Under the pieces are notes generated by a model. The model was not told the origin of the DNA. It did no database searches and was given only the letters and a program-made list of their open reading frames with translations. The translations under genes were made by a program, and so were the position numbers. Below, one piece after another: positions 8,457 through 53,555 of a DNA stretch of 64,000 bases (its first letter is position 1; each line of letters opens with the position of its first letter). The stretch is taken from NCBI RefSeq assembly GCF_988242995.1, contig NZ_OZ547043.1; one strand, written 5' to 3'.

Positions 8457-9278
8457 ATGCGATTAGCCAGTCGTTTTGGTTATGCTGCAAACCAGATACG
8501 CCGTGACCGTCCGCTGACACATGAAGAACTGATACGCCATGTACCCAGTATTTTTGGGGAAGACCGGCACACCTCCCGCAGTGAACGGTATGCGTACATT
8601 CCCACCATTACCGTCCTGGAAAATCTGCAGCGGGAAGGCTTTCAGCCGTTCTTCGCCTGCCAGACCCGTGTGCGCGACCCGGGCCGCCGGGGATACACAA
8701 AACACATGCTGCGTCTGCGGCGGGCCGGAGAGATAAACGGAGAACATGTCCCTGAAATTATTCTGCTCAACTCTCATGACGGTACCTCCAGCTACCAGAT
8801 GCTGCCGGGTTACTTCAGGTTCGTCTGCCAGAACGGGTGCGTCTGTGGCCAGTCTCTGGGGGAAGTGCGTGTTCCACACCGGGGAAATGTAGTGGAGAAA
8901 GTTATCGAAGGGGCTTACGAGGTGGTGGGCGTGTTTGACCGGATAGAGGAGAAGCGTGATGCCATGCAGTCGCTGGTCCTGCCGCCACCGGCACGCCAGG
9001 CGCTGGCACAGGCGGCACTGACTTACCGTTATGGTGACGAACATCAGCCCGTCACCACCGCCGACATTCTGACGCCGCGACGCCGGGAGGATTACGGTAA
9101 GGACCTGTGGAGCGCATATCAGACCATCCAGGAGAATATGCTGAAAGGCGGGATTTCCGGTCGCAGTGCAAAAGGAAAACGTATCCATACCCGGGCCATT
9201 CACAGCATTGATACCGACATTAAGCTCAATCGCGCATTGTGGGTGATGGCAGAAACGATGCTGGAGAGCCTGCGCTGA
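8457..9278 (+). CDS. DUF932-family island protein (YfjQ/YafZ-like)
   Basis: RBS TAAGGAG; 273-aa protein recalled as a YfjQ/YafZ-type backbone gene of CP4 islands; antisense ORF 8463..9305 judged spurious. Confidence 0.65.
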   Translation: MRLASRFGYAANQIRRDRPLTHEELIRHVPSIFGEDRHTSRSERYAYIPTITVLENLQREGFQPFFACQTRVRDPGRRGYTKHMLRLRRAGEINGEHVPEIILLNSHDGTSSYQMLPGYFRFVCQNGCVCGQSLGEVRVPHRGNVVEKVIEGAYEVVGVFDRIEEKRDAMQSLVLPPPARQALAQAALTYRYGDEHQPVTTADILTPRRREDYGKDLWSAYQTIQENMLKGGISGRSAKGKRIHTRAIHSIDTDIKLNRALWVMAETMLESLR

Positions 9279-9359
9279 TGCCGTTTCCCTGGGTGAGGGA
9301 ATCATTCAGCTTTCGTTCCTGAAAAACACACATTTATTTGTTATTTAAGGAGTTATCTC

Positions 9360-9839
9360 ATGAAAACCGTTTCTCAGAATACCCCCACAATTTATTCAGC
9401 TACAACACCAGAGAATAATCCGCCTCAGTTGGTTGCCAGCCTCGTCCCTGATGAACAGCGCATCAGCTTCTGGCCGCAGCATTTTGGCCTCATTCCACAG
9501 TGGGTGACCCTGGAGCCCCGTGTCTTCGGCTGGATGGACCGTCTGTGCGAAGACTACTGCGGTGGTATCTGGAATCTGTACACCCTGAACAACGGCGGGG
9601 CATTTATGGCACCCGAACCGGATGACGATGATGACGAAACATGGGTACTGTTCAATGCCATGAACGGTAACCGCGCAGAAATGAGCCCGGAAGCCGCCGG
9701 TATTGCCGCCTGTCTGATGACGTACAGTCATCATGCCTGTCGTACGGAGAATTATGCCATGACGGTCCATTATTACCGGTTGCGGGATTACGCCCTGCAG
9801 CATCCGGAATGCAGCGCCATTATGCGCATCATCGACTGA
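9360..9839 (+). CDS. antirestriction-like protein (YfjX/YafX-like)
   Basis: 159-aa acidic protein immediately upstream of radC-like gene, matching conserved island synteny. Confidence 0.55.
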   Translation: MKTVSQNTPTIYSATTPENNPPQLVASLVPDEQRISFWPQHFGLIPQWVTLEPRVFGWMDRLCEDYCGGIWNLYTLNNGGAFMAPEPDDDDDETWVLFNAMNGNRAEMSPEAAGIAACLMTYSHHACRTENYAMTVHYYRLRDYALQHPECSAIMRIID

Positions 9840-9854
9840 ATGGAGAGAAGCACA

Positions 9855-10331
9855 ATGCAACAACTTTCCTTTCTGCCCGGAGAGATGACGCCCGGCGAGC
9901 GCAGCCTCATTCAGCGGGCCCTGAAAACCCTGGACCGCCATCTTCATGAACCCGGCGTGGCCTTCACCTCCACCCGTGCAGCACGGGAATGGCTGATTCT
10001 GAACATGGCGGGACTGGAGCGTGAAGAATTCCGGGTGCTGTATCTGAACAACCAGAATCAGCTGATTGCCGGTGAAACCCTCTTCACCGGCACCATCAAC
10101 CGCACGGAAGTCCATCCCCGGGAAGTGATTAAACGCGCCCTGTACCACAATGCCGCTGCCGTGGTACTGGCACACAATCACCCGTCCGGTGAAGTCACAC
10201 CCAGTAAGGCAGACCGGCTTATCACCGAACGTCTGGTACAGGCACTGGGCCTGGTGGATATCCGGGTGCCGGACCATCTGATAGTCGGTGGCAACCAGGT
10301 TTTCTCCTTTGCCGAACATGGTCTGCTTTAA
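9855..10331 (+). CDS. yeeS: RadC-like JAB/MPN domain protein
   Basis: JAMM motif HNHPSGEVTPS; start taken at MQQLSFLPGE; CP4-44 synteny. Confidence 0.75.
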   Translation: MQQLSFLPGEMTPGERSLIQRALKTLDRHLHEPGVAFTSTRAAREWLILNMAGLEREEFRVLYLNNQNQLIAGETLFTGTINRTEVHPREVIKRALYHNAAAVVLAHNHPSGEVTPSKADRLITERLVQALGLVDIRVPDHLIVGGNQVFSFAEHGLL

Positions 10332-10393
10332 CCCTTCACAACCACATCACACCTGTTTTCACTTTTATCTTCTGTCTTCAGAGGTATCCCATT

Positions 10394-10615
10394 ATGAAAA
10401 TTATCACCCGTGGTGAAGCCATGCGTATTCACCAACAACATCCGACATCCCGTCTTTTTCCGTTCTGTACCGGTAAATACCGCTGGCACGGCAGTGCTGA
10501 AGCGTATACCGGTCGTGAAGTGCAGGATATTCCCGGTGTGCTGGCCGTGTTTGCTGAACGCCGTAAGGACAGTTTTGGTCCGTATGTCCGGCTGATGAGC
10601 GTCACCCTGAACTGA
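10394..10615 (+). CDS. yeeT: DUF987 protein YeeT
   Basis: 73-aa ORF matching recalled YeeT sequence and position. Confidence 0.75.
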   Translation: MKIITRGEAMRIHQQHPTSRLFPFCTGKYRWHGSAEAYTGREVQDIPGVLAVFAERRKDSFGPYVRLMSVTLN

Positions 10616-10688
10616 GTGGGAATTCTGATGAGCAGAATTATCGCCACTACCGGACCATTCTTAGCCGATTTTCTGTAAGGATTTTATC

Positions 10689-11057
10689 GTGTCAGACACA
10701 CTCCCCGGGACAACACTTCCCGACGACAATCACGACCGCCCCTGGTGGGGGCTGCCCTGCACCGTGACGCCCTGTTTCGGGGCACGTCTGGTGCAGGAGG
10801 GTAACCGGTTGCATTACCTTGCCGACCGCGCCGGTATCAGAGGCCTGTTCAGCGATGCAGATGCGTACCACCTGGACCAGGCCTTTCCGCTGCTGATGAA
10901 ACAACTGGAACTCATGCTCACCAGCGGTGAACTGAATCCCCGCCATCAGCATACCGTCACGCTGTATGCAAAAGGGCTGACCTGCAAAGCCGATACCCTC
11001 AGCAGTTGTGGTTACGTTTATCTGGCTGTTTATCCGACGCCCGAAATGAAAAATTAA
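10689..11057 (+). CDS. cbeA: CbeA (YeeU) antitoxin of the CbtA/CbeA type IV TA system
   Basis: GTG start, 122 aa, MSDTLPGTTLPDDNHDRPWWGLPC matches recalled YeeU. Confidence 0.8.
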   Translation: MSDTLPGTTLPDDNHDRPWWGLPCTVTPCFGARLVQEGNRLHYLADRAGIRGLFSDADAYHLDQAFPLLMKQLELMLTSGELNPRHQHTVTLYAKGLTCKADTLSSCGYVYLAVYPTPEMKN

Positions 11058-11145
11058 CTCTCCAGAATAGCCTTCTGCTACGGCCTGGTGTTTTCACCAC
11101 GCCACTTTTCCATTTTTATATCTGCATATCAGGAAAATCTTCAGT

Positions 11146-11519
11146 ATGAAAACATTACCTGTATTACCCGGGCAGGCGGCCAGTTCTCGCCCGTCTCCTG
11201 TTGAAATCTGGCAGATACTGCTGTCCCGACTGCTGGACCAGCACTATGGCCTCACACTGAATGACACACCTTTTGCCGATGAACGTGTGATTGAGCAGCA
11301 TATTGAGGCAGGCATTTCACTGTGTGATGCGGTGAACTTTCTCGTGGAAAAATACGCGCTGATGCTACCGACCAGCCGGGATTCAGCGCCTGTACCCGCT
11401 CTCAGTTAATAAACAGCATCGATATCCTCCGGGCTCGCAGGGCGACCGGCCTGATGACCCGCGACAATTACAGAACGGTAAATAACATTACCCTGGGTAA
11501 GTATCCGGAGGCGAAATGA
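11146..11519 (+). pseudogene. cbtA: cbtA (yeeV) toxin gene, frameshifted
   Basis: N-terminal 81 aa match recalled CbtA, then the frame terminates at 11409; the CbtA C-terminus ([39 protein letters not shown]) is encoded in the -1 frame ending at 11519; span is 374 nt, one short of the expected 375. Confidence 0.65.
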
Positions 11520-11710
11520 TGACACTGGAAGCCGACAGCGTTAACGTACAGGCGCTGGATATGGGGCACATTGTCGTTGACATTGATGGTGTTAATATCA
11601 CTGAACTGATTAATAAGGCCGCTGAAAACGGTTATTCACTCCGCGTGGTGGATGACCGTGACTCTACCGAAACACCGGCAACTTATGCCAGCCCTCACCA
11701 GTTGCTGTAA
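11516..11710 (+). CDS. yeeW: YeeW
   Basis: 64-aa ORF whose ATG overlaps the expected cbtA stop; CP4-44 synteny. Confidence 0.65.
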   Translation: MMTLEADSVNVQALDMGHIVVDIDGVNITELINKAAENGYSLRVVDDRDSTETPATYASPHQLL

Positions 11711-12124
11711 GACAATGCAGTGATGCAGGGTATAGTGCCATTAACCACAGAAACAGCACTGTTGTCCTGTATTAAGCAGGCAAGAGAAGATGTCCTTACC
11801 CTGCGCCATCTGCAGCTTCTGCACCAGAACCGGTGAATCTCACTCAACAGGCTTCATTTCCCCTGACGCCAGCCTGAATACAGCTGGCGTTTTCATTTAT
11901 AAACAGAAAGGAAAACCGATAATAATGGAATGGACGCCCCGACCATGAAGCAACGGTAGGATATTACTGATAAACCTTCCAGTGGAGGTGCGTTATGGCC
12001 GTTTTAACGATTAGCATTGACCTGACAAAAAATGAATTCCAAATCCACGGTCTGGGTAGGAACAGAAAAATCTAAGCTCAGAAAACGGATTAAAGTAAGC
12101 GTCAACGGAGCACCGTATTGACGC

Positions 12125-12330
12125 TTATTTATTGGTGAGAACTACGTTCCATGGCAGGAGTTCGTCAACACGGTTGGAGGGCCATTCCGGCAGTATGCTC
12201 AGAATATGGCGCAGATACGCTTCCGGATCGATACCGTTCAGACGGCAGGTGCCTGCTTTTCCGGCAACAAGCAGGAATCTCAGTGCTGAAGCAGGAATTA
12301 GAGGTAAAAACGCCCTACCGGGCCATGAAT
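12125..12330 (-). pseudogene. C-terminal fragment of an IS66-family-like transposase
   Basis: Minus-strand frame reads ...GKAGTCRLNGIDPEAYLRHILSILPEWPSNRVDELLPWNVVLTNK-stop with no upstream start; resembles IS66 TnpC C-terminus from memory. Confidence 0.4.
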
Positions 12331-20639: not shown

Positions 20640-20905
20640 GGTCATTCTCCTTTACGGTGATAACCGTCGCGTAAGCAAAAAATTGCCCCATTTTTTTGGA
20701 TTCCTCAGCGACAACAACTGTCGATTTTTAGTAAATATCTATCCGGTACGAAGCCCGGCCTCTTGGTATGAATGATTGGTTTGAAGCAAAAAATAACCGA
20801 CGCTGATGAAACGTCGGTTTTTAGTCATTTTTTGACAGCGGCGCATTGTGCCTAAATGGGGGGGAAATGACAAGAGAATGAGAGGCTTGTCATAATAATT
20901 TTTCT

Positions 20906-22787: not shown

Positions 22788-23042
22788 TCAATAATGATAA
22801 CGACATGCTGCAATGAGCAGTGAATCATCAGTAACCGCGTATACCAGACGGTGCTCCTCTGTAATGCGTCGGGACCAGAAACCTGACAAATTATGTTTCA
22901 GGGGTTCTGGTTTCCCCTTACCTTCAAATGGTGTTCTGCGGGTATCTTTGATAAGTTCATTGATCTTTTTAACAATTCGCTTATCTGTTTCCTGCCAGTA
23001 CAGATAATCATCCCATGATTCCTCAGACCAGATTAGTTTCAC
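22788..23042 (-). CDS. yoeB: YoeB toxin (mRNA interferase)
   Basis: 84 aa, [21 protein letters not shown] matches recalled YoeB. Confidence 0.9.
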
Positions 23043-23290
23043 TCAATAATGTCCTTTTCCGTTCCTTTGCCTGATTTCAGGCTATCGATTGAGTCCATCA
23101 ATCTCCGGGCGTTAGCGGGGGAACGCAGTAGATAAGCCGTCTCTTCCAGCGAGTTGTATTCTTCGAGTGACATCAGAACACAAGCCTCTCCATTCTGACG
23201 AGTAATGAGGATCGGGGCATGATCTTCAACGGCTTTCATCATTGTTGCCGACAAATTCTGACGCGCTTCGCTGTAACTAATTGTACGCAT
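23039..23290 (-). CDS. yefM: YefM antitoxin
   Basis: 83 aa, [41 protein letters not shown]; overlaps yoeB by 4 nt. Confidence 0.9.
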
Positions 23291-23324: not shown

Positions 23325-23573
23325 TGATAGACGTTGATTCACTATTTATTAATTAGTTTGTAGATCAAGACATTGTCAGTGAGACGAAAAATCCAGGCTT
23401 CGCTATTTTGGGTACCGTCAGGTTAGAGGACAGTCCTCTTAGCGCCCTCCTTTCCCCGCTCATTCATTAAACAAATCCATCGCCATAAAATATATAAAAA
23501 AGCCCTTGCTTTCTAACGTGAAAGTGGTTTAGGTTAAAAGACATCAGTTGAATAAACATTCACAGAGACTTTT

Positions 23574-23624
23574 ATGACACGCGTTCAATTTAAACACCAC
23601 CATCATCACCATCATCCTGACTAG
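23574..23624 (+). CDS. hisL: his operon leader peptide
   Basis: MTRVQFKHHHHHHHPD with seven consecutive His codons. Confidence 0.95.
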   Translation: MTRVQFKHHHHHHHPD

Positions 23625-23688
23625 TCTTTCAGGCGATGTGTGCTGGAAGACATTCAGATCTTCCAGTGGTGCATGAACGCATGAGAGA

Positions 23689-23724
23689 GCCCCCGGAAGA
23701 TCACCTTCCGGGGGCTTTTTTATT
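23689..23724 (+). terminator. his attenuator terminator
   Basis: GC-rich hairpin GCCCCCGGAAG/CTTCCGGGGGC followed by TTTTTTATT. Confidence 0.9.
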
Positions 23725-23769
23725 GCGCGGTTGATAACGGTTCAGACAGGTTTAAAGAGGAATAAGAAA

Positions 23770-24669
23770 ATGACAGACAACACTCGTTTACGCATAGCTA
23801 TGCAGAAATCCGGCCGTTTAAGTGATGACTCACGCGAATTGCTGGCGCGCTGTGGCATTAAAATCAATCTTCACACCCAGCGCCTGATCGCGATGGCAGA
23901 AAACATGCCGATTGATATTCTGCGCGTGCGTGACGACGACATTCCCGGTCTGGTAATGGACGGCGTGGTAGACCTTGGAATTATCGGCGAAAACGTGCTG
24001 GAAGAAGAACTGCTTAACCGCCGCGCCCAGGGTGAAGATCCGCGCTACTTTACCCTGCGTCGACTGGATTTCGGCGGCTGCCGCCTTTCGCTGGCAACGC
24101 CGGTTGATGAAGCCTGGGACGGCCCGCTCTCCTTAAATGGTAAACGTATCGCCACCTCTTATCCTCACCTGCTCAAGCGTTATCTCGACCAGAAAGGCAT
24201 CTCTTTTAAATCCTGCTTACTGAACGGTTCTGTTGAAGTCGCCCCGCGTGCCGGACTGGCGGATGCGATTTGCGATCTGGTTTCCACCGGTGCCACGCTG
24301 GAAGCTAACGGCCTGCGCGAAGTCGAAGTTATCTACCGCTCGAAAGCCTGCCTGATCCAGCGCGATGGCGAAATGGAAGAATCCAAACAGCAACTAATCG
24401 ACAAACTGCTGACCCGTATTCAGGGTGTGATCCAGGCGCGCGAATCAAAATACATCATGATGCACGCACCGACCGAACGTCTGGATGAAGTCATCGCCCT
24501 GCTGCCAGGTGCCGAACGCCCAACCATTCTGCCGCTGGCGGGTGACCAACAACGCGTAGCGATGCACATGGTCAGTAGCGAAACCCTGTTCTGGGAAACG
24601 ATGGAAAAACTGAAAGCGCTGGGTGCCAGTTCAATCCTGGTCCTGCCGATTGAGAAGATGATGGAGTGA
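23770..24669 (+). CDS. hisG: ATP phosphoribosyltransferase
   Basis: 299 aa from [15 protein letters not shown]. Confidence 0.95.
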
Positions 24670-24674
24670 TCGCC

Positions 24675-27045
<2,371 letters not shown>

Positions 27046-27046
<1 letters not shown>

Positions 27047-28112
27047 TGAGTCAGAAGTATCTTTTTATCGATCGCGATGGAACCCTGATTAGCGAACCGC
27101 CGAGTGATTTTCAGGTGGACCGTTTTGATAAACTCGCCTTTGAACCGGGCGTGATCCCGGAACTGCTGAAGCTGCAAAAAGCGGGCTACAAGCTGGTGAT
27201 GATCACTAATCAGGATGGTCTGGGAACACAAAGTTTCCCACAGGCGGATTTCGATGGCCCGCACAACCTGATGATGCAGATCTTCACCTCGCAAGGCGTA
27301 CAGTTTGATGAAGTGCTGATTTGTCCGCACCTGCCCGCCGATGAGTGCGACTGCCGTAAGCCGAAAGTAAAACTGGTGGAACGTTATCTGGCTGAGCAAG
27401 CGATGGATCGCGCTAACAGTTATGTGATTGGCGATCGCGCGACCGACATTCAACTGGCGGAAAACATGGGCATTAATGGTTTACGCTACGACCGCGAAAC
27501 CCTGAACTGGCCGATGATTGGCGAGCAACTCACTAAACGAGACCGTTACGCCCATGTAGTGCGCAACACCAAAGAGACGCAAATTGATGTCCAGGTGTGG
27601 CTGGATCGCGAAGGTGGCAGCAAGATTAACACCGGTGTTGGCTTCTTTGATCACATGCTGGATCAGATCGCCACCCACGGCGGTTTCCGCATGGAAGTCA
27701 ACGTCAAAGGCGACCTCTATATCGACGATCACCACACCGTCGAAGATACCGGCCTGGCGCTGGGCGAAGCGTTAAAAATTGCCCTCGGCGATAAACGCGG
27801 TATTTGCCGCTTTGGTTTTGTGCTGCCGATGGACGAATGCCTTGCCCGCTGTGCACTGGATATCTCTGGTCGCCCGCACCTGGAATATAAAGCCGAATTT
27901 ACCTACCAGCGCGTGGGCGATCTCAGCACCGAAATGATCGAGCACTTCTTCCGTTCGCTCTCATACACCATGGGCGTGACGTTGCACCTGAAAACCAAAG
28001 GTAAAAACGATCATCACCGTGTAGAGAGTCTCTTTAAAGCCTTTGGTCGCACCCTGCGCCAGGCCATCCGCGTGGAAGGCGACACCCTGCCCTCGTCGAA
28101 AGGAGTGCTGTA

Positions 28113-28113
<1 letters not shown>
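27046..28113 (+). CDS. hisB: bifunctional histidinol-phosphatase / imidazoleglycerol-phosphate dehydratase
   Basis: 355 aa from [14 protein letters not shown]. Confidence 0.95.
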
Positions 28114-30191
<2,078 letters not shown>

Positions 30192-30198
<7 letters not shown>

Positions 30199-30803
30199 CA
30201 GAACAACAATGTCGCGAACTGGACTGGGAAAAAACCGACGGACTGATGCCGGTGATTGTGCAACACGCGGTATCCGGCGAAGTGTTAATGCTGGGCTATA
30301 TGAACCCGGAAGCCTTAGACAAAACCATCGAAAGCGGCAAAGTCACCTTCTTCTCGCGCACTAAACAGCGACTGTGGACCAAAGGCGAAACGTCGGGCAA
30401 TTTCCTCAACGTAGTAAATATTACGCCGGACTGCGACAACGACACGTTACTGTTGCTGGCGAATCCCATCGGCCCGACCTGCCACAAAGGCACCAGCAGC
30501 TGCTTCGGCGACACCGCTCACCAGTGGCTGTTCCTGTATCAACTGGAACAACTGCTCGCCGAACGTAAATCTGCCGATCCGGAAACCTCCTACACCGCCA
30601 AACTGTATGCCAGCGGCACCAAGCGCATTGCGCAGAAAGTGGGCGAAGAAGGCGTGGAAACTGCGCTGGCAGCAACGGTACATGACCGCTTTGAACTCAC
30701 CAACGAGGCGTCTGACTTGATGTATCACCTGCTGGTGCTGTTGCAGGATCAGGGGCTGGATTTAACGACGGTAATTGAGAACCTGCGTAAACGGCATCAG
30801 TGA
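30192..30803 (+). CDS. hisI: bifunctional phosphoribosyl-AMP cyclohydrolase / phosphoribosyl-ATP pyrophosphatase
   Basis: 203 aa from [12 protein letters not shown]. Confidence 0.95.
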
Positions 30804-43553: not shown

Positions 43554-43592
43554 CACGCTACCGCCCCTGGCTTTACAGCTACCAGAGCACTA
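43554..43592 (-). promoter_or_regulatory. JUMPstart element containing the ops site (GGCGGTAGCGTG)
   Basis: Reverse complement of the plus strand gives CAGTGCTCTGGTAGCTGTAAAGCCAGGGGCGGTAGCGTG; ops at 43554..43565. Confidence 0.85.
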
Positions 43593-44918: not shown

Positions 44919-46313
44919 CTACTCCCTCCGTTCCGGCAATCTAAAGTTAATCTTTTCCACATTAACAATATGGTGATTTATCCTGTCGATATCGACGGAG
45001 CTTTGCCCTCTTTCATTCACCGCATGAACATTTGCAAGAGATAGCAGTGTTTCTTTTTTCGCCATAAAGACGCCGCGAACGTCTTTGCGCATGTCAAAGT
45101 TCATGCTCAATGCTGGTCCAACAGAGGATTTCTGCATCACCTTGATATTACGCATAAAAAGGTGTTGCGGTTTATTGTGTAGCTCAAGCGAGGCACGCTT
45201 CATCTCAATGTTAGTCAGTGCCACAAAGGAGACAGCATTCCCGGCGGAGATTTGGATGCCGCGCAATTTATAAGCAAGGTGAGTGTTATCCAGTTGAATA
45301 TTATTCACTCGGAAATTTTGCGGTATCGAGAGATATTTGCCTTTAATTACCCCATAGCCAATTAACATCCCGGCGCTATTAATCATTTCAATATTATCAA
45401 TCACGAATTTGTCACAACCGTAAATAGCGACTGTGGCGTTATCAATGCCTGCTTTCTTACTGAAATCCGGCGTGATATTGCGGGCTTTGATATTACGAAT
45501 AACAAAATGTTTACCATTTTCAACATGTATCAACTGCCGACAATCCGATCCCGTGATATTCGCCACGACAAAGTTTTTCACTGCCTGATCTTCCGGGTAA
45601 TTATTATCGTAAGTGCTTCCCGCAAGGCCTATGCCAATGCCCCAGTTGATTTTGCCGTTAGTACAGTTGATGCGCTCGATGACATGGTCGGAGATCAAAA
45701 TATCACTGTCGTTAATTGCCACGTTCCATTCAATGGCGTCGCCCTGTAAGTCGCTGAACTTACAGTTGGTGATGTTGGCACCGATTATCTGGTTATGAAA
45801 TCCCTGGCGTAAGATGGCGTAATTAGCGTGGCTAACGGTCAGGTTATCGATGGTCAGGTTGCGCATGACCCGTTTGTTTTTGCCGCCGATATAAATCTGC
45901 GTTACCGGACCAAAGCCGCTCATCGCCAGCCCTTTGATGGTGCAGTCAGAGCCGCGCACATCCAGGGTGATGTTATGCATACTGCCGCCCTCCTCCCCTG
46001 TCACCTGGCTGCCGTCCTGTAAGATAAATCGCCCTCTGCCGTTGCCGCGCAGGCTTCCAAGGATGTGTAACGTTTTACCTGCAGGAATGAAGATGCCGGT
46101 GTTGATATTGTCGCAAACCAATCCGGCAGGCACGACGACCGTTTGCCCTTCGCTGAAGGCTTGTTTAAATGAGGCGATCCAGTCGTGAGGGTTGTAGTCG
46201 TTAATGTTAACGCTTTGTCGGGCGGGAAGTGCGCGAGCGAAAGGGGTATGGAGGAAGGCAAGGGCCGAGCTTGCCGTCAGGAAGGTGCGTCGGGAGAGTT
46301 TTTTAAATGGCAT
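44919..46313 (-). CDS. wcaM: colanic acid biosynthesis protein WcaM
   Basis: 464 aa, Tat-like signal [20 protein letters not shown]; beta-helix-like. Confidence 0.85.
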
Positions 46314-48882: not shown

Positions 48883-49070
48883 GCCTGATGCGACGCTGAC
48901 GCGTCTTATCAGGCCTACAAGACCCGAGCACAGAACCGTAGGCCGGATAAGGCGTTCACGCCGCATCCGGCATTCAGTGCCTGATGCGACGCTGACGCGT
49001 CTTATCAGGCCTACAGGTCCCGAGCACAGAACCGTAGGATGGATAAGGCGTTTTACGCCGCATCCGGCAA
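48883..49070. repeat. tandem REP/BIME units (about 96-bp period)
   Basis: GCCTGATGCGACGCTGACGCGTCTTATCAGGCCTAC...GCCGCATCCGGCA repeated twice nearly identically. Confidence 0.85.
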
Positions 49071-53477: not shown

Positions 53478-53555
53478 ATCGTTACCCTTTTTCAGGCAAT
53501 AGTTGGTCCTGACCGAAGCGGCCAATTTTATTTTTGTCGTTATTTACACCGCGGT

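Follow-up and report, generated by a model that had tools for sequence, protein, structure and literature searches.

An intact hisL leader and predicted transcription attenuator upstream of the histidine operon in an Escherichia coli genome

Positions 23574-23724 of the window analyzed here (the whole stretch of 64,000 nucleotides from contig NZ_OZ547043.1) almost certainly constitute the hisL leader of the E. coli histidine biosynthesis operon together with its ribosome-mediated transcription attenuator. At the level of sequence, all the defining features of the enterobacterial His leader and its hisL attenuator are present in this interval. The his attenuator is a founding example both of ribosome-mediated transcription attenuation and of hairpin-stabilized RNA polymerase pausing, and it was on the his leader of Salmonella enterica that both the model of alternative helices A-F and the his pause were elucidated.

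Results

Family identity and genomic context

When the whole window was scanned against Rfam 15 at gathering thresholds, the His_leader family (RF00514) was matched at 23600-23723 with a score of 130.2 bits (E = 2.6e-21; gathering score 49). The match spans model positions 1-126 of 126 and is not truncated. An earlier note on this DNA had read the interval as a canonical his leader under textbook attenuation control, confirming the identity of the locus, and had named alignment to the K-12 his leader as the check. That alignment was run, and 150 of 151 positions in 23574-23724 are identical to hisL and the attenuator of K-12 MG1655 (b2018; NC_000913.3, 2089996-2090146); over 23440-23790, which takes in the promoter region and the start of hisG, the count is 347 of the 350 positions compared. 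K-12 and the window share the peptide, the A-F helices, the pause hairpin and pause site, the terminator loop, the U-tract and the promoter hexamers, and in both of them 146 nt separate the hisL stop from the hisG ATG. K-12 differs in having A at 23687, where the window has G, and, outside the interval, C at 23766, where the window also has G. The latter substitution falls in the 5' UTR of hisG, after the Shine-Dalgarno sequence AAGAGG and before the ATG at 23770.

The leader is 100% identical to the hisL/His leader region of E. coli S88 (O45:K1:H7; NC_011742.1, 2090031-2090180), and the identity to S88 is likewise 100% for a 311-nt leader query and for the 25 kb around it (20000-44999). In window coordinates, the RefSeq annotation of S88 places hisL at 23574-23624 and a His leader region at 23600-23723. 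The 311-bp region is present over at least 80% of its length in 5413 of 5426 complete E. coli genomes, and the E. coli matches listed annotate the region as hisL, His leader region or hisG. The same query was found in up to 5 places in one genome and in one place on a plasmid, and gave no match at all in 3 of the 5426 genomes.

Two annotated units flank the leader.

23770-30803, plus strand: hisG-D-C-B-H-A-F-IE operon, from the open reading frames and the RefSeq annotation of the identical S88 sequence
22788-23290, minus strand: yefM-yoeB type II toxin-antitoxin pair, divergent and directly upstream of the his promoter, as in K-12

The leader thus stands immediately upstream of the his operon and on the same strand. 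The identity of the locus is borne out by hisG, D, C, B, H, A, F and IE directly downstream, and the RF00514 match, the K-12 identity and the downstream operon together support the proposed attenuation control, as far as sequence can speak to it.

The leader peptide and its regulatory codons

The coding part of the leader comprises the following features.

23574-23624, plus strand: hisL leader peptide ORF, translated as MTRVQFKHHHHHHHPD and a stop; annotated as hisL at the homologous position in K-12 and S88
23595-23615, plus strand: seven consecutive His codons, the regulatory codons (CAC CAC CAT CAT CAC CAT CAT)
23565-23568, plus strand: weak Shine-Dalgarno-like GAGA, read from the sequence, 5-8 nt 5' of the hisL ATG

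The ORF opens with an ATG at 23574, has 16 codons and closes with a TAG stop at 23622-23624; it is a short, translatable leader ORF with a tandem run of His codons. The seven consecutive His codons claimed for hisL by the earlier note are confirmed by translation, and the interval that it had marked runs almost exactly from the start of hisL to the end of the U-tract. The 64-kb window has a single (CAY)x7 run, and 100 dinucleotide-preserving shuffles of the window gave none.

Two other ORFs in this region were set aside as mechanical by-products, both unannotated in K-12 and S88: a minus-strand ORF at 23544-23615 (23 aa, MMVMMVV...), which is the antisense of the His codons, and a plus-strand ORF at 23636-23734 (32 aa), which crosses the attenuator helices.

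Promoter, transcription start and pause site

Upstream of hisL and around its 3' end we located the elements below.

23506-23535, plus strand: putative hisL promoter hisLp, with -35 TTGCTT (23506-23511) and a weak -10 TAGGTT (23530-23535), then an A/T-rich discriminator
23543, plus strand: putative transcription start (+1) of the leader RNA of ~180 nt
23616-23620 with 23629-23633, plus strand: his pause hairpin, the tip of helix A:B, with a 5-bp stem and the 8-nt loop CUAGUCUU
U23644 (-1, RNA 3' end), G23645 (+1) and G23635 (-10), plus strand: predicted his transcriptional pause site, read from the sequence, 10 nt downstream of the hairpin base

On the model of the published his promoter we take TTGCTT and TAGGTT to be the -35 and -10 hexamers of hisLp. 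The stretch 23506-23535 is identical to K-12, and these candidate hexamers are correctly spaced for a transcription start at 23543. A consensus promoter scan of the window did not report hisLp, because its -10 TAGGTT matches at only 3 of 6 positions. The start was placed at 23543 by the numbering used in PMC10989985, since the equivalences U49 = T23591 and G127-U128-G129 = 23669-23671 fit no other origin; a leader of 180 nt from this start would end at 23722, within the U-tract.

The characterized hisL pause has a stem of 5, a loop of 8, a 10-nt spacer and the consensus G-10/Y-1/G+1 (PMC9291695). The pause element predicted here from the letters matches it in both geometry and consensus, and the sequence of the pause site is identical to K-12. 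The predicted pause hairpin and pause site are thus intact in the window.

Alternative helices

Five helices were assigned, three belonging to the terminating conformation and two to the read-through conformation.

23607-23613 and 23616-23620 with 23629-23633 and 23635-23642, plus strand: A:B helix, terminating, from the MFE fold; -12.7 kcal/mol alone
23644-23650 with 23659-23665, plus strand: C:D helix, terminating, from the MFE fold and the Rfam consensus
23681-23699 with 23705-23723, plus strand: E:F arms, terminating, from the MFE fold and the Rfam consensus
23624-23632 with 23643-23651, plus strand: B:C, the first read-through helix; -12.1 kcal/mol
23657-23664 with 23695-23702, plus strand: D:E antiterminator helix, which takes up the upper 5' arm of the terminator; region alone -15.4 kcal/mol

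The 150 nt at 23575-23724 fold with a predicted energy of -68.5 kcal/mol, against -35.5 +/- 4.0 for shuffles (z = -8.3). The MFE fold and the Rfam consensus structure agree, with A:B, C:D and E:F all present; folded alone, the C:D region forms a 9-bp version of its helix at -12.7 kcal/mol. Segment A (23607-23620) overlaps the last His codons. Helix B:C excludes both A:B and C:D, and D:E and E:F are mutually exclusive because both use 23695-23699 of terminator arm E.

A stalled ribosome was imitated by forcing 23574-23619 to be unpaired and folding successive transcript prefixes. With this mask up to 23619, B:C is the MFE structure once C has been transcribed and before D exists, and if B:C is then held, D:E forms before F is transcribed (-15.4 kcal/mol). 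With the ribosome placed at the stop codon and B covered, constrained folding gives C:D and E:F. The constrained folds therefore contain an antiterminator exclusive with the terminator, and a chain of helices that ties this choice to the position of the ribosome. Once D has been transcribed, C:D (-12.8 kcal/mol) is slightly better than B:C (-12.1 kcal/mol) at equilibrium, and the antiterminator is absent from full-length equilibrium folds, whether unconstrained or ribosome-masked, in which E:F dominates; prefix folding with B:C held is needed to obtain it. Since the equilibrium MFE does not select the read-through structure, the switch to read-through would have to be kinetic and co-transcriptional, in keeping with the classical model.

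The terminator hairpin

The terminating conformation ends in one predicted element, which lies between the leader ORF and the first structural gene.

23681-23723, plus strand: E:F intrinsic terminator (attenuator), with a 19-pair stem and the loop AUCAC at 23700-23704, from the predicted fold and the Rfam consensus structure

Its core pairs AGCCCCCGGAAG (23688-23699) with CUUCCGGGGGCU (23705-23716), 9 of the 12 pairs being G-C, and A/G-U pairs beyond the core extend the stem to 23681-23723. The T6 tract lies at 23716-23721, within the tract TTTTTTATT at 23716-23724. Predicted folding energies are -25.1 kcal/mol for the core alone and -32.9 kcal/mol for the hairpin with its A/U extension, and the hairpin ends 47 nt before the hisG ATG at 23770. 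The GC-rich terminator hairpin with a U-tract that had been described as following the His codons is accordingly found at 23681-23723.

A simple consensus terminator scan reported no terminator at the attenuator. Probably the T-tract is taken up in pairing with the A-rich 5' flank AUGAGAGA, which leaves no T-run past the longest stem, and we treat the miss as a limit of the scanner, not as evidence against a terminator.

Conservation among orthologues

The pattern AAR-(CAY)7-CCN-GAY was scanned over a collection of genomes from 100,044 species and gave 76 loci, nearly all in Enterobacteriaceae; since the pattern required the His run and the Pro-Asp that follows, the set is biased towards conserved, canonical leaders. 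From these loci, 56 distinct leader sequences were aligned with the window and K-12. One exact match to the pattern, in a MAG of the Bacteroidia (L025:1598-1761), was left out of the alignment as a chance or unrelated poly-His stretch with unrelated sequence downstream.

Pairing was analyzed in 57 distinct orthologues from ~25 enterobacterial genera, with slid helices as controls.

Terminating helices (A:B, C:D, E:F): 98.5% of cells paired; slid controls 48-59%
Read-through helices (B:C, D:E): 99.5% of cells paired; slid controls 42-53%

Helix by helix, pairing across the 57 orthologues is 100% for A:B, 100% for C:D, 96.9% for E:F, 100% for B:C and 98.9% for D:E, and the sole variable pair of C:D is an A-U/G-U pair. 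The stem columns are nearly invariant, and the sequences vary only in the C:D loop, the D-E spacer, the terminator loop and the tail. Among stem changes, just one is frequent, an A to G in segment C (column 74, 16 sequences); it keeps pairing in both C:D and B:C, as would be expected where one base has to suit two alternative partners. Compensatory covariation is essentially nil in the 57 orthologues and does not exceed the shuffle controls; with stems that hardly vary, no independent support can come from covariation. The orthologue data are evidence for conservation of pairing, not independent proof of structure.

In two orthologues from Pseudocitrobacter (L011, L012) and two from Trabulsiella (L072, L076), ATT or TTT stands where hisL of the window has its ATG. 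All four have an in-frame ATG one codon downstream, which would shorten their leader peptides by one residue; no change is seen in the His run or in any of the helices.

The G23687 allele

One position within the interval separates the window from K-12.

23687, plus strand: G instead of A, the only K-12 difference inside the interval, from the alignment

G23687 pairs with U23717, so that an A-U pair in the lower, A/U-rich part of the terminator stem becomes G-U. The predicted energy difference between G and A at this position is 0.1 kcal/mol, and the D:E helix is unchanged. The earlier reading of the element as canonical is accurate, with the small qualification that the exact allele is in the minority: of 5410 E. 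coli genomes only 43, S88 and O145:H28 strains among them, match the 67-nt terminator stretch at 100% identity, while 5364 of the 5410 fall in the 95-99% band (1-3 mismatches over 67 nt), with K-12 at one mismatch. In the orthologue alignment the corresponding columns (115/147) hold G-U in 18 of 56 scorable sequences and A-U in the other 38; the allele is rare in E. coli and common in other genera.

We regard G23687 as a neutral polymorphism, on the strength of these models. It is improbable, but conceivable, that it slightly shifts the set-point of the attenuator and so changes basal his expression. Such a shift might come about if pairing between the A-tract and the U-tract at the base of the terminator, or the efficiency of termination, were altered by the substitution. 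The MFE predictions argue against any effect of G23687.

The remainder of the window

Over 1-45.4 kb the window has only 2 differences from S88, at 7615 and 11336, neither of them near the leader. Beyond ~45.4 kb, with a breakpoint at about 45408-45950 inside wcaM, the identity to S88 falls abruptly to ~97.5%. It stays at this level through the colanic acid (wca) cluster, divergence peaks near 52-53 kb, and there is an 80-bp indel relative to S88 near 60-61 kb. For 45-64 kb, no complete E. coli genome in the collection is above 98.8% identity. Judged by the alignments, the drop looks like a recombination junction flanking the O-antigen locus, and the strain looks S88-like, not S88 itself.

At 300-12300, upstream of the core yee genes, lies an island-like block, a CP4-44-like remnant. 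In S88 this block encodes a GTPase, a dynamin-family protein, an RdcB-family protein, a patatin-like phospholipase, a DUF932 protein and an antirestriction protein, as well as YeeS/YeeT and a CbeA/CbtA type IV toxin-antitoxin. The S88 annotation gives cbtA as frameshifted, and the window substitution at 11336 falls inside this cbtA pseudogene. Four further RNA families scored above their Rfam gathering scores.

43554-43592, minus strand: JUMPstart element, upstream of rfbB, in the S88-variant O45 O-antigen cluster
53482-53531, minus strand: algC RNA, upstream of cpsG
48941-49011, plus strand: naRNA4 (REP-derived), between wcaK and wzxC
20786-20860, minus strand: sRNA STnc240, between yoeI and yeeY

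Discussion

Our results favor regulation of the his operon in this genome by the classical attenuation mechanism. Transcription would start at hisLp, at about 23543, and RNA polymerase would transcribe hisL and pause at U23644, where the pause hairpin that caps A:B (23616-23633) would hold it long enough for a ribosome to load on hisL. With charged tRNA-His in good supply, this ribosome would pass the seven His codons, reach the stop at 23622 and either cover B or be released; in both cases C:D and E:F would pair, and the E:F hairpin with its U-tract would end the leader transcript of ~180 nt before hisG. When His-tRNA-His is scarce, the ribosome would stall within 23595-23615 and cover segment A, so that B:C could pair as C emerges, leaving D free to pair with E and block E:F, and the polymerase would read through into hisGDCBHAF-IE. 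If the leader were left untranslated, A:B, C:D and E:F would all form and termination would be maximal. This mechanism, with its 180-nt leader, 16-aa peptide and attenuator of 14 bp and a 5-nt loop, is summarized in PMC10989985, and a rise in read-through when charged tRNA-His is limiting is known for both K-12 and Salmonella (PMC9291695, PMC10989985).

A recent proposal adds complexity to that scheme insofar as DnaA is suggested to bind rDnaA boxes in the leader RNA and favor the terminating fold (the "DnaA-dependent riboswitch", mLife 2023). Such a layer would add to ribosome-mediated attenuation and would not replace it. Of the boxes in question, rDnaA box 1/2 lies around 23588-23598, just ahead of the His codons, and box 3 occupies 23668-23676, in the spacer that separates C:D from E:F; the sequences of both are present and unchanged in the leader of the window. 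The work behind the proposal reported enrichment in vivo of leader RNA by RIP with DnaA-FLAG, and de-attenuation on deletion of boxes 1/2 or 3 (PMC10989985, 2023), and the sequence is compatible with it: TTAAACACC at 23590-23598 has 2 mismatches to the DnaA-box consensus TTATNCACA, as has the reverse complement of GGTGCATGA at 23668-23676, and each is identical to K-12. However, the same authors did not detect binding of DnaA to the RNA in vitro and do not regard direct binding as conclusively shown (PMC10989985). The boxes, each with 2 mismatches, lie in sequence on which the coding region and the helices already impose constraints, so that their conservation is uninformative either way. We therefore consider a DnaA layer on top of attenuation rather unlikely.

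Far less probable is that the hairpin is a plain intrinsic terminator or insulator beside an unrelated small ORF, in which the His run would be coincidental or belong to a stand-alone small protein. In principle any hairpin with a U-tract could act as a general terminator, but nothing specific speaks for this one doing so. On the upstream side the closest genes are yefM-yoeB, which lie on the other strand, so that only the his promoter feeds a plus-strand hairpin; the hairpin sits between that promoter and hisG; and the B:C and D:E alternatives that overlap it are conserved. Coincidence is an equally poor account of the His run, given that the chance expectation of (CAY)x7 is essentially zero and that it is the histidine operon, of all operons, which the run precedes. 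Regulation of another class, for instance through a T-box riboswitch or a protein-mediated antiterminator (as in Firmicutes), has a negligible probability and no point in its support: scanned over the whole window at gathering thresholds, Rfam yields His_leader at the leader and neither a T-box nor another riboswitch there, a translatable leader ORF with tandem His codons is present, and the dependence of regulation on leader translation, reported for start-codon and Shine-Dalgarno mutants (PMC10989985), excludes it.

The S. enterica his leader has the same peptide length, His run and helices as the window, and S. enterica subsp. diarizonae and arizonae differ from it only in loops, spacers and the tail after the U-tract. 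In S. enterica a T8 tract takes the place of the T6-A-TT of the window, the terminator loop is AUCAU as compared with AUCAC, and the sequence downstream of the terminator is different. The trpL, pheL, thrL, leuL and ilvL leaders, ribosome-mediated attenuators of other enteric amino-acid operons, work by the same logic: a short leader ORF is rich in the cognate codons, a hairpin serves pausing, antiterminator and terminator helices exclude each other, and an intrinsic terminator precedes the first structural gene. As regulatory codons the his leader has seven contiguous His codons and trpL, for example, has two Trp codons; six segments and five helices are used to describe the his leader, and four segments make up the trp scheme.

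In conclusion, the element is an already known, textbook member of its family, and an intact copy of it in another E. coli strain adds no new biology. As an anchor, the attenuator identifies the window as a segment of the E. coli chromosome with yefM-yoeB, hisL and the his operon, followed by the O-antigen and colanic acid clusters.
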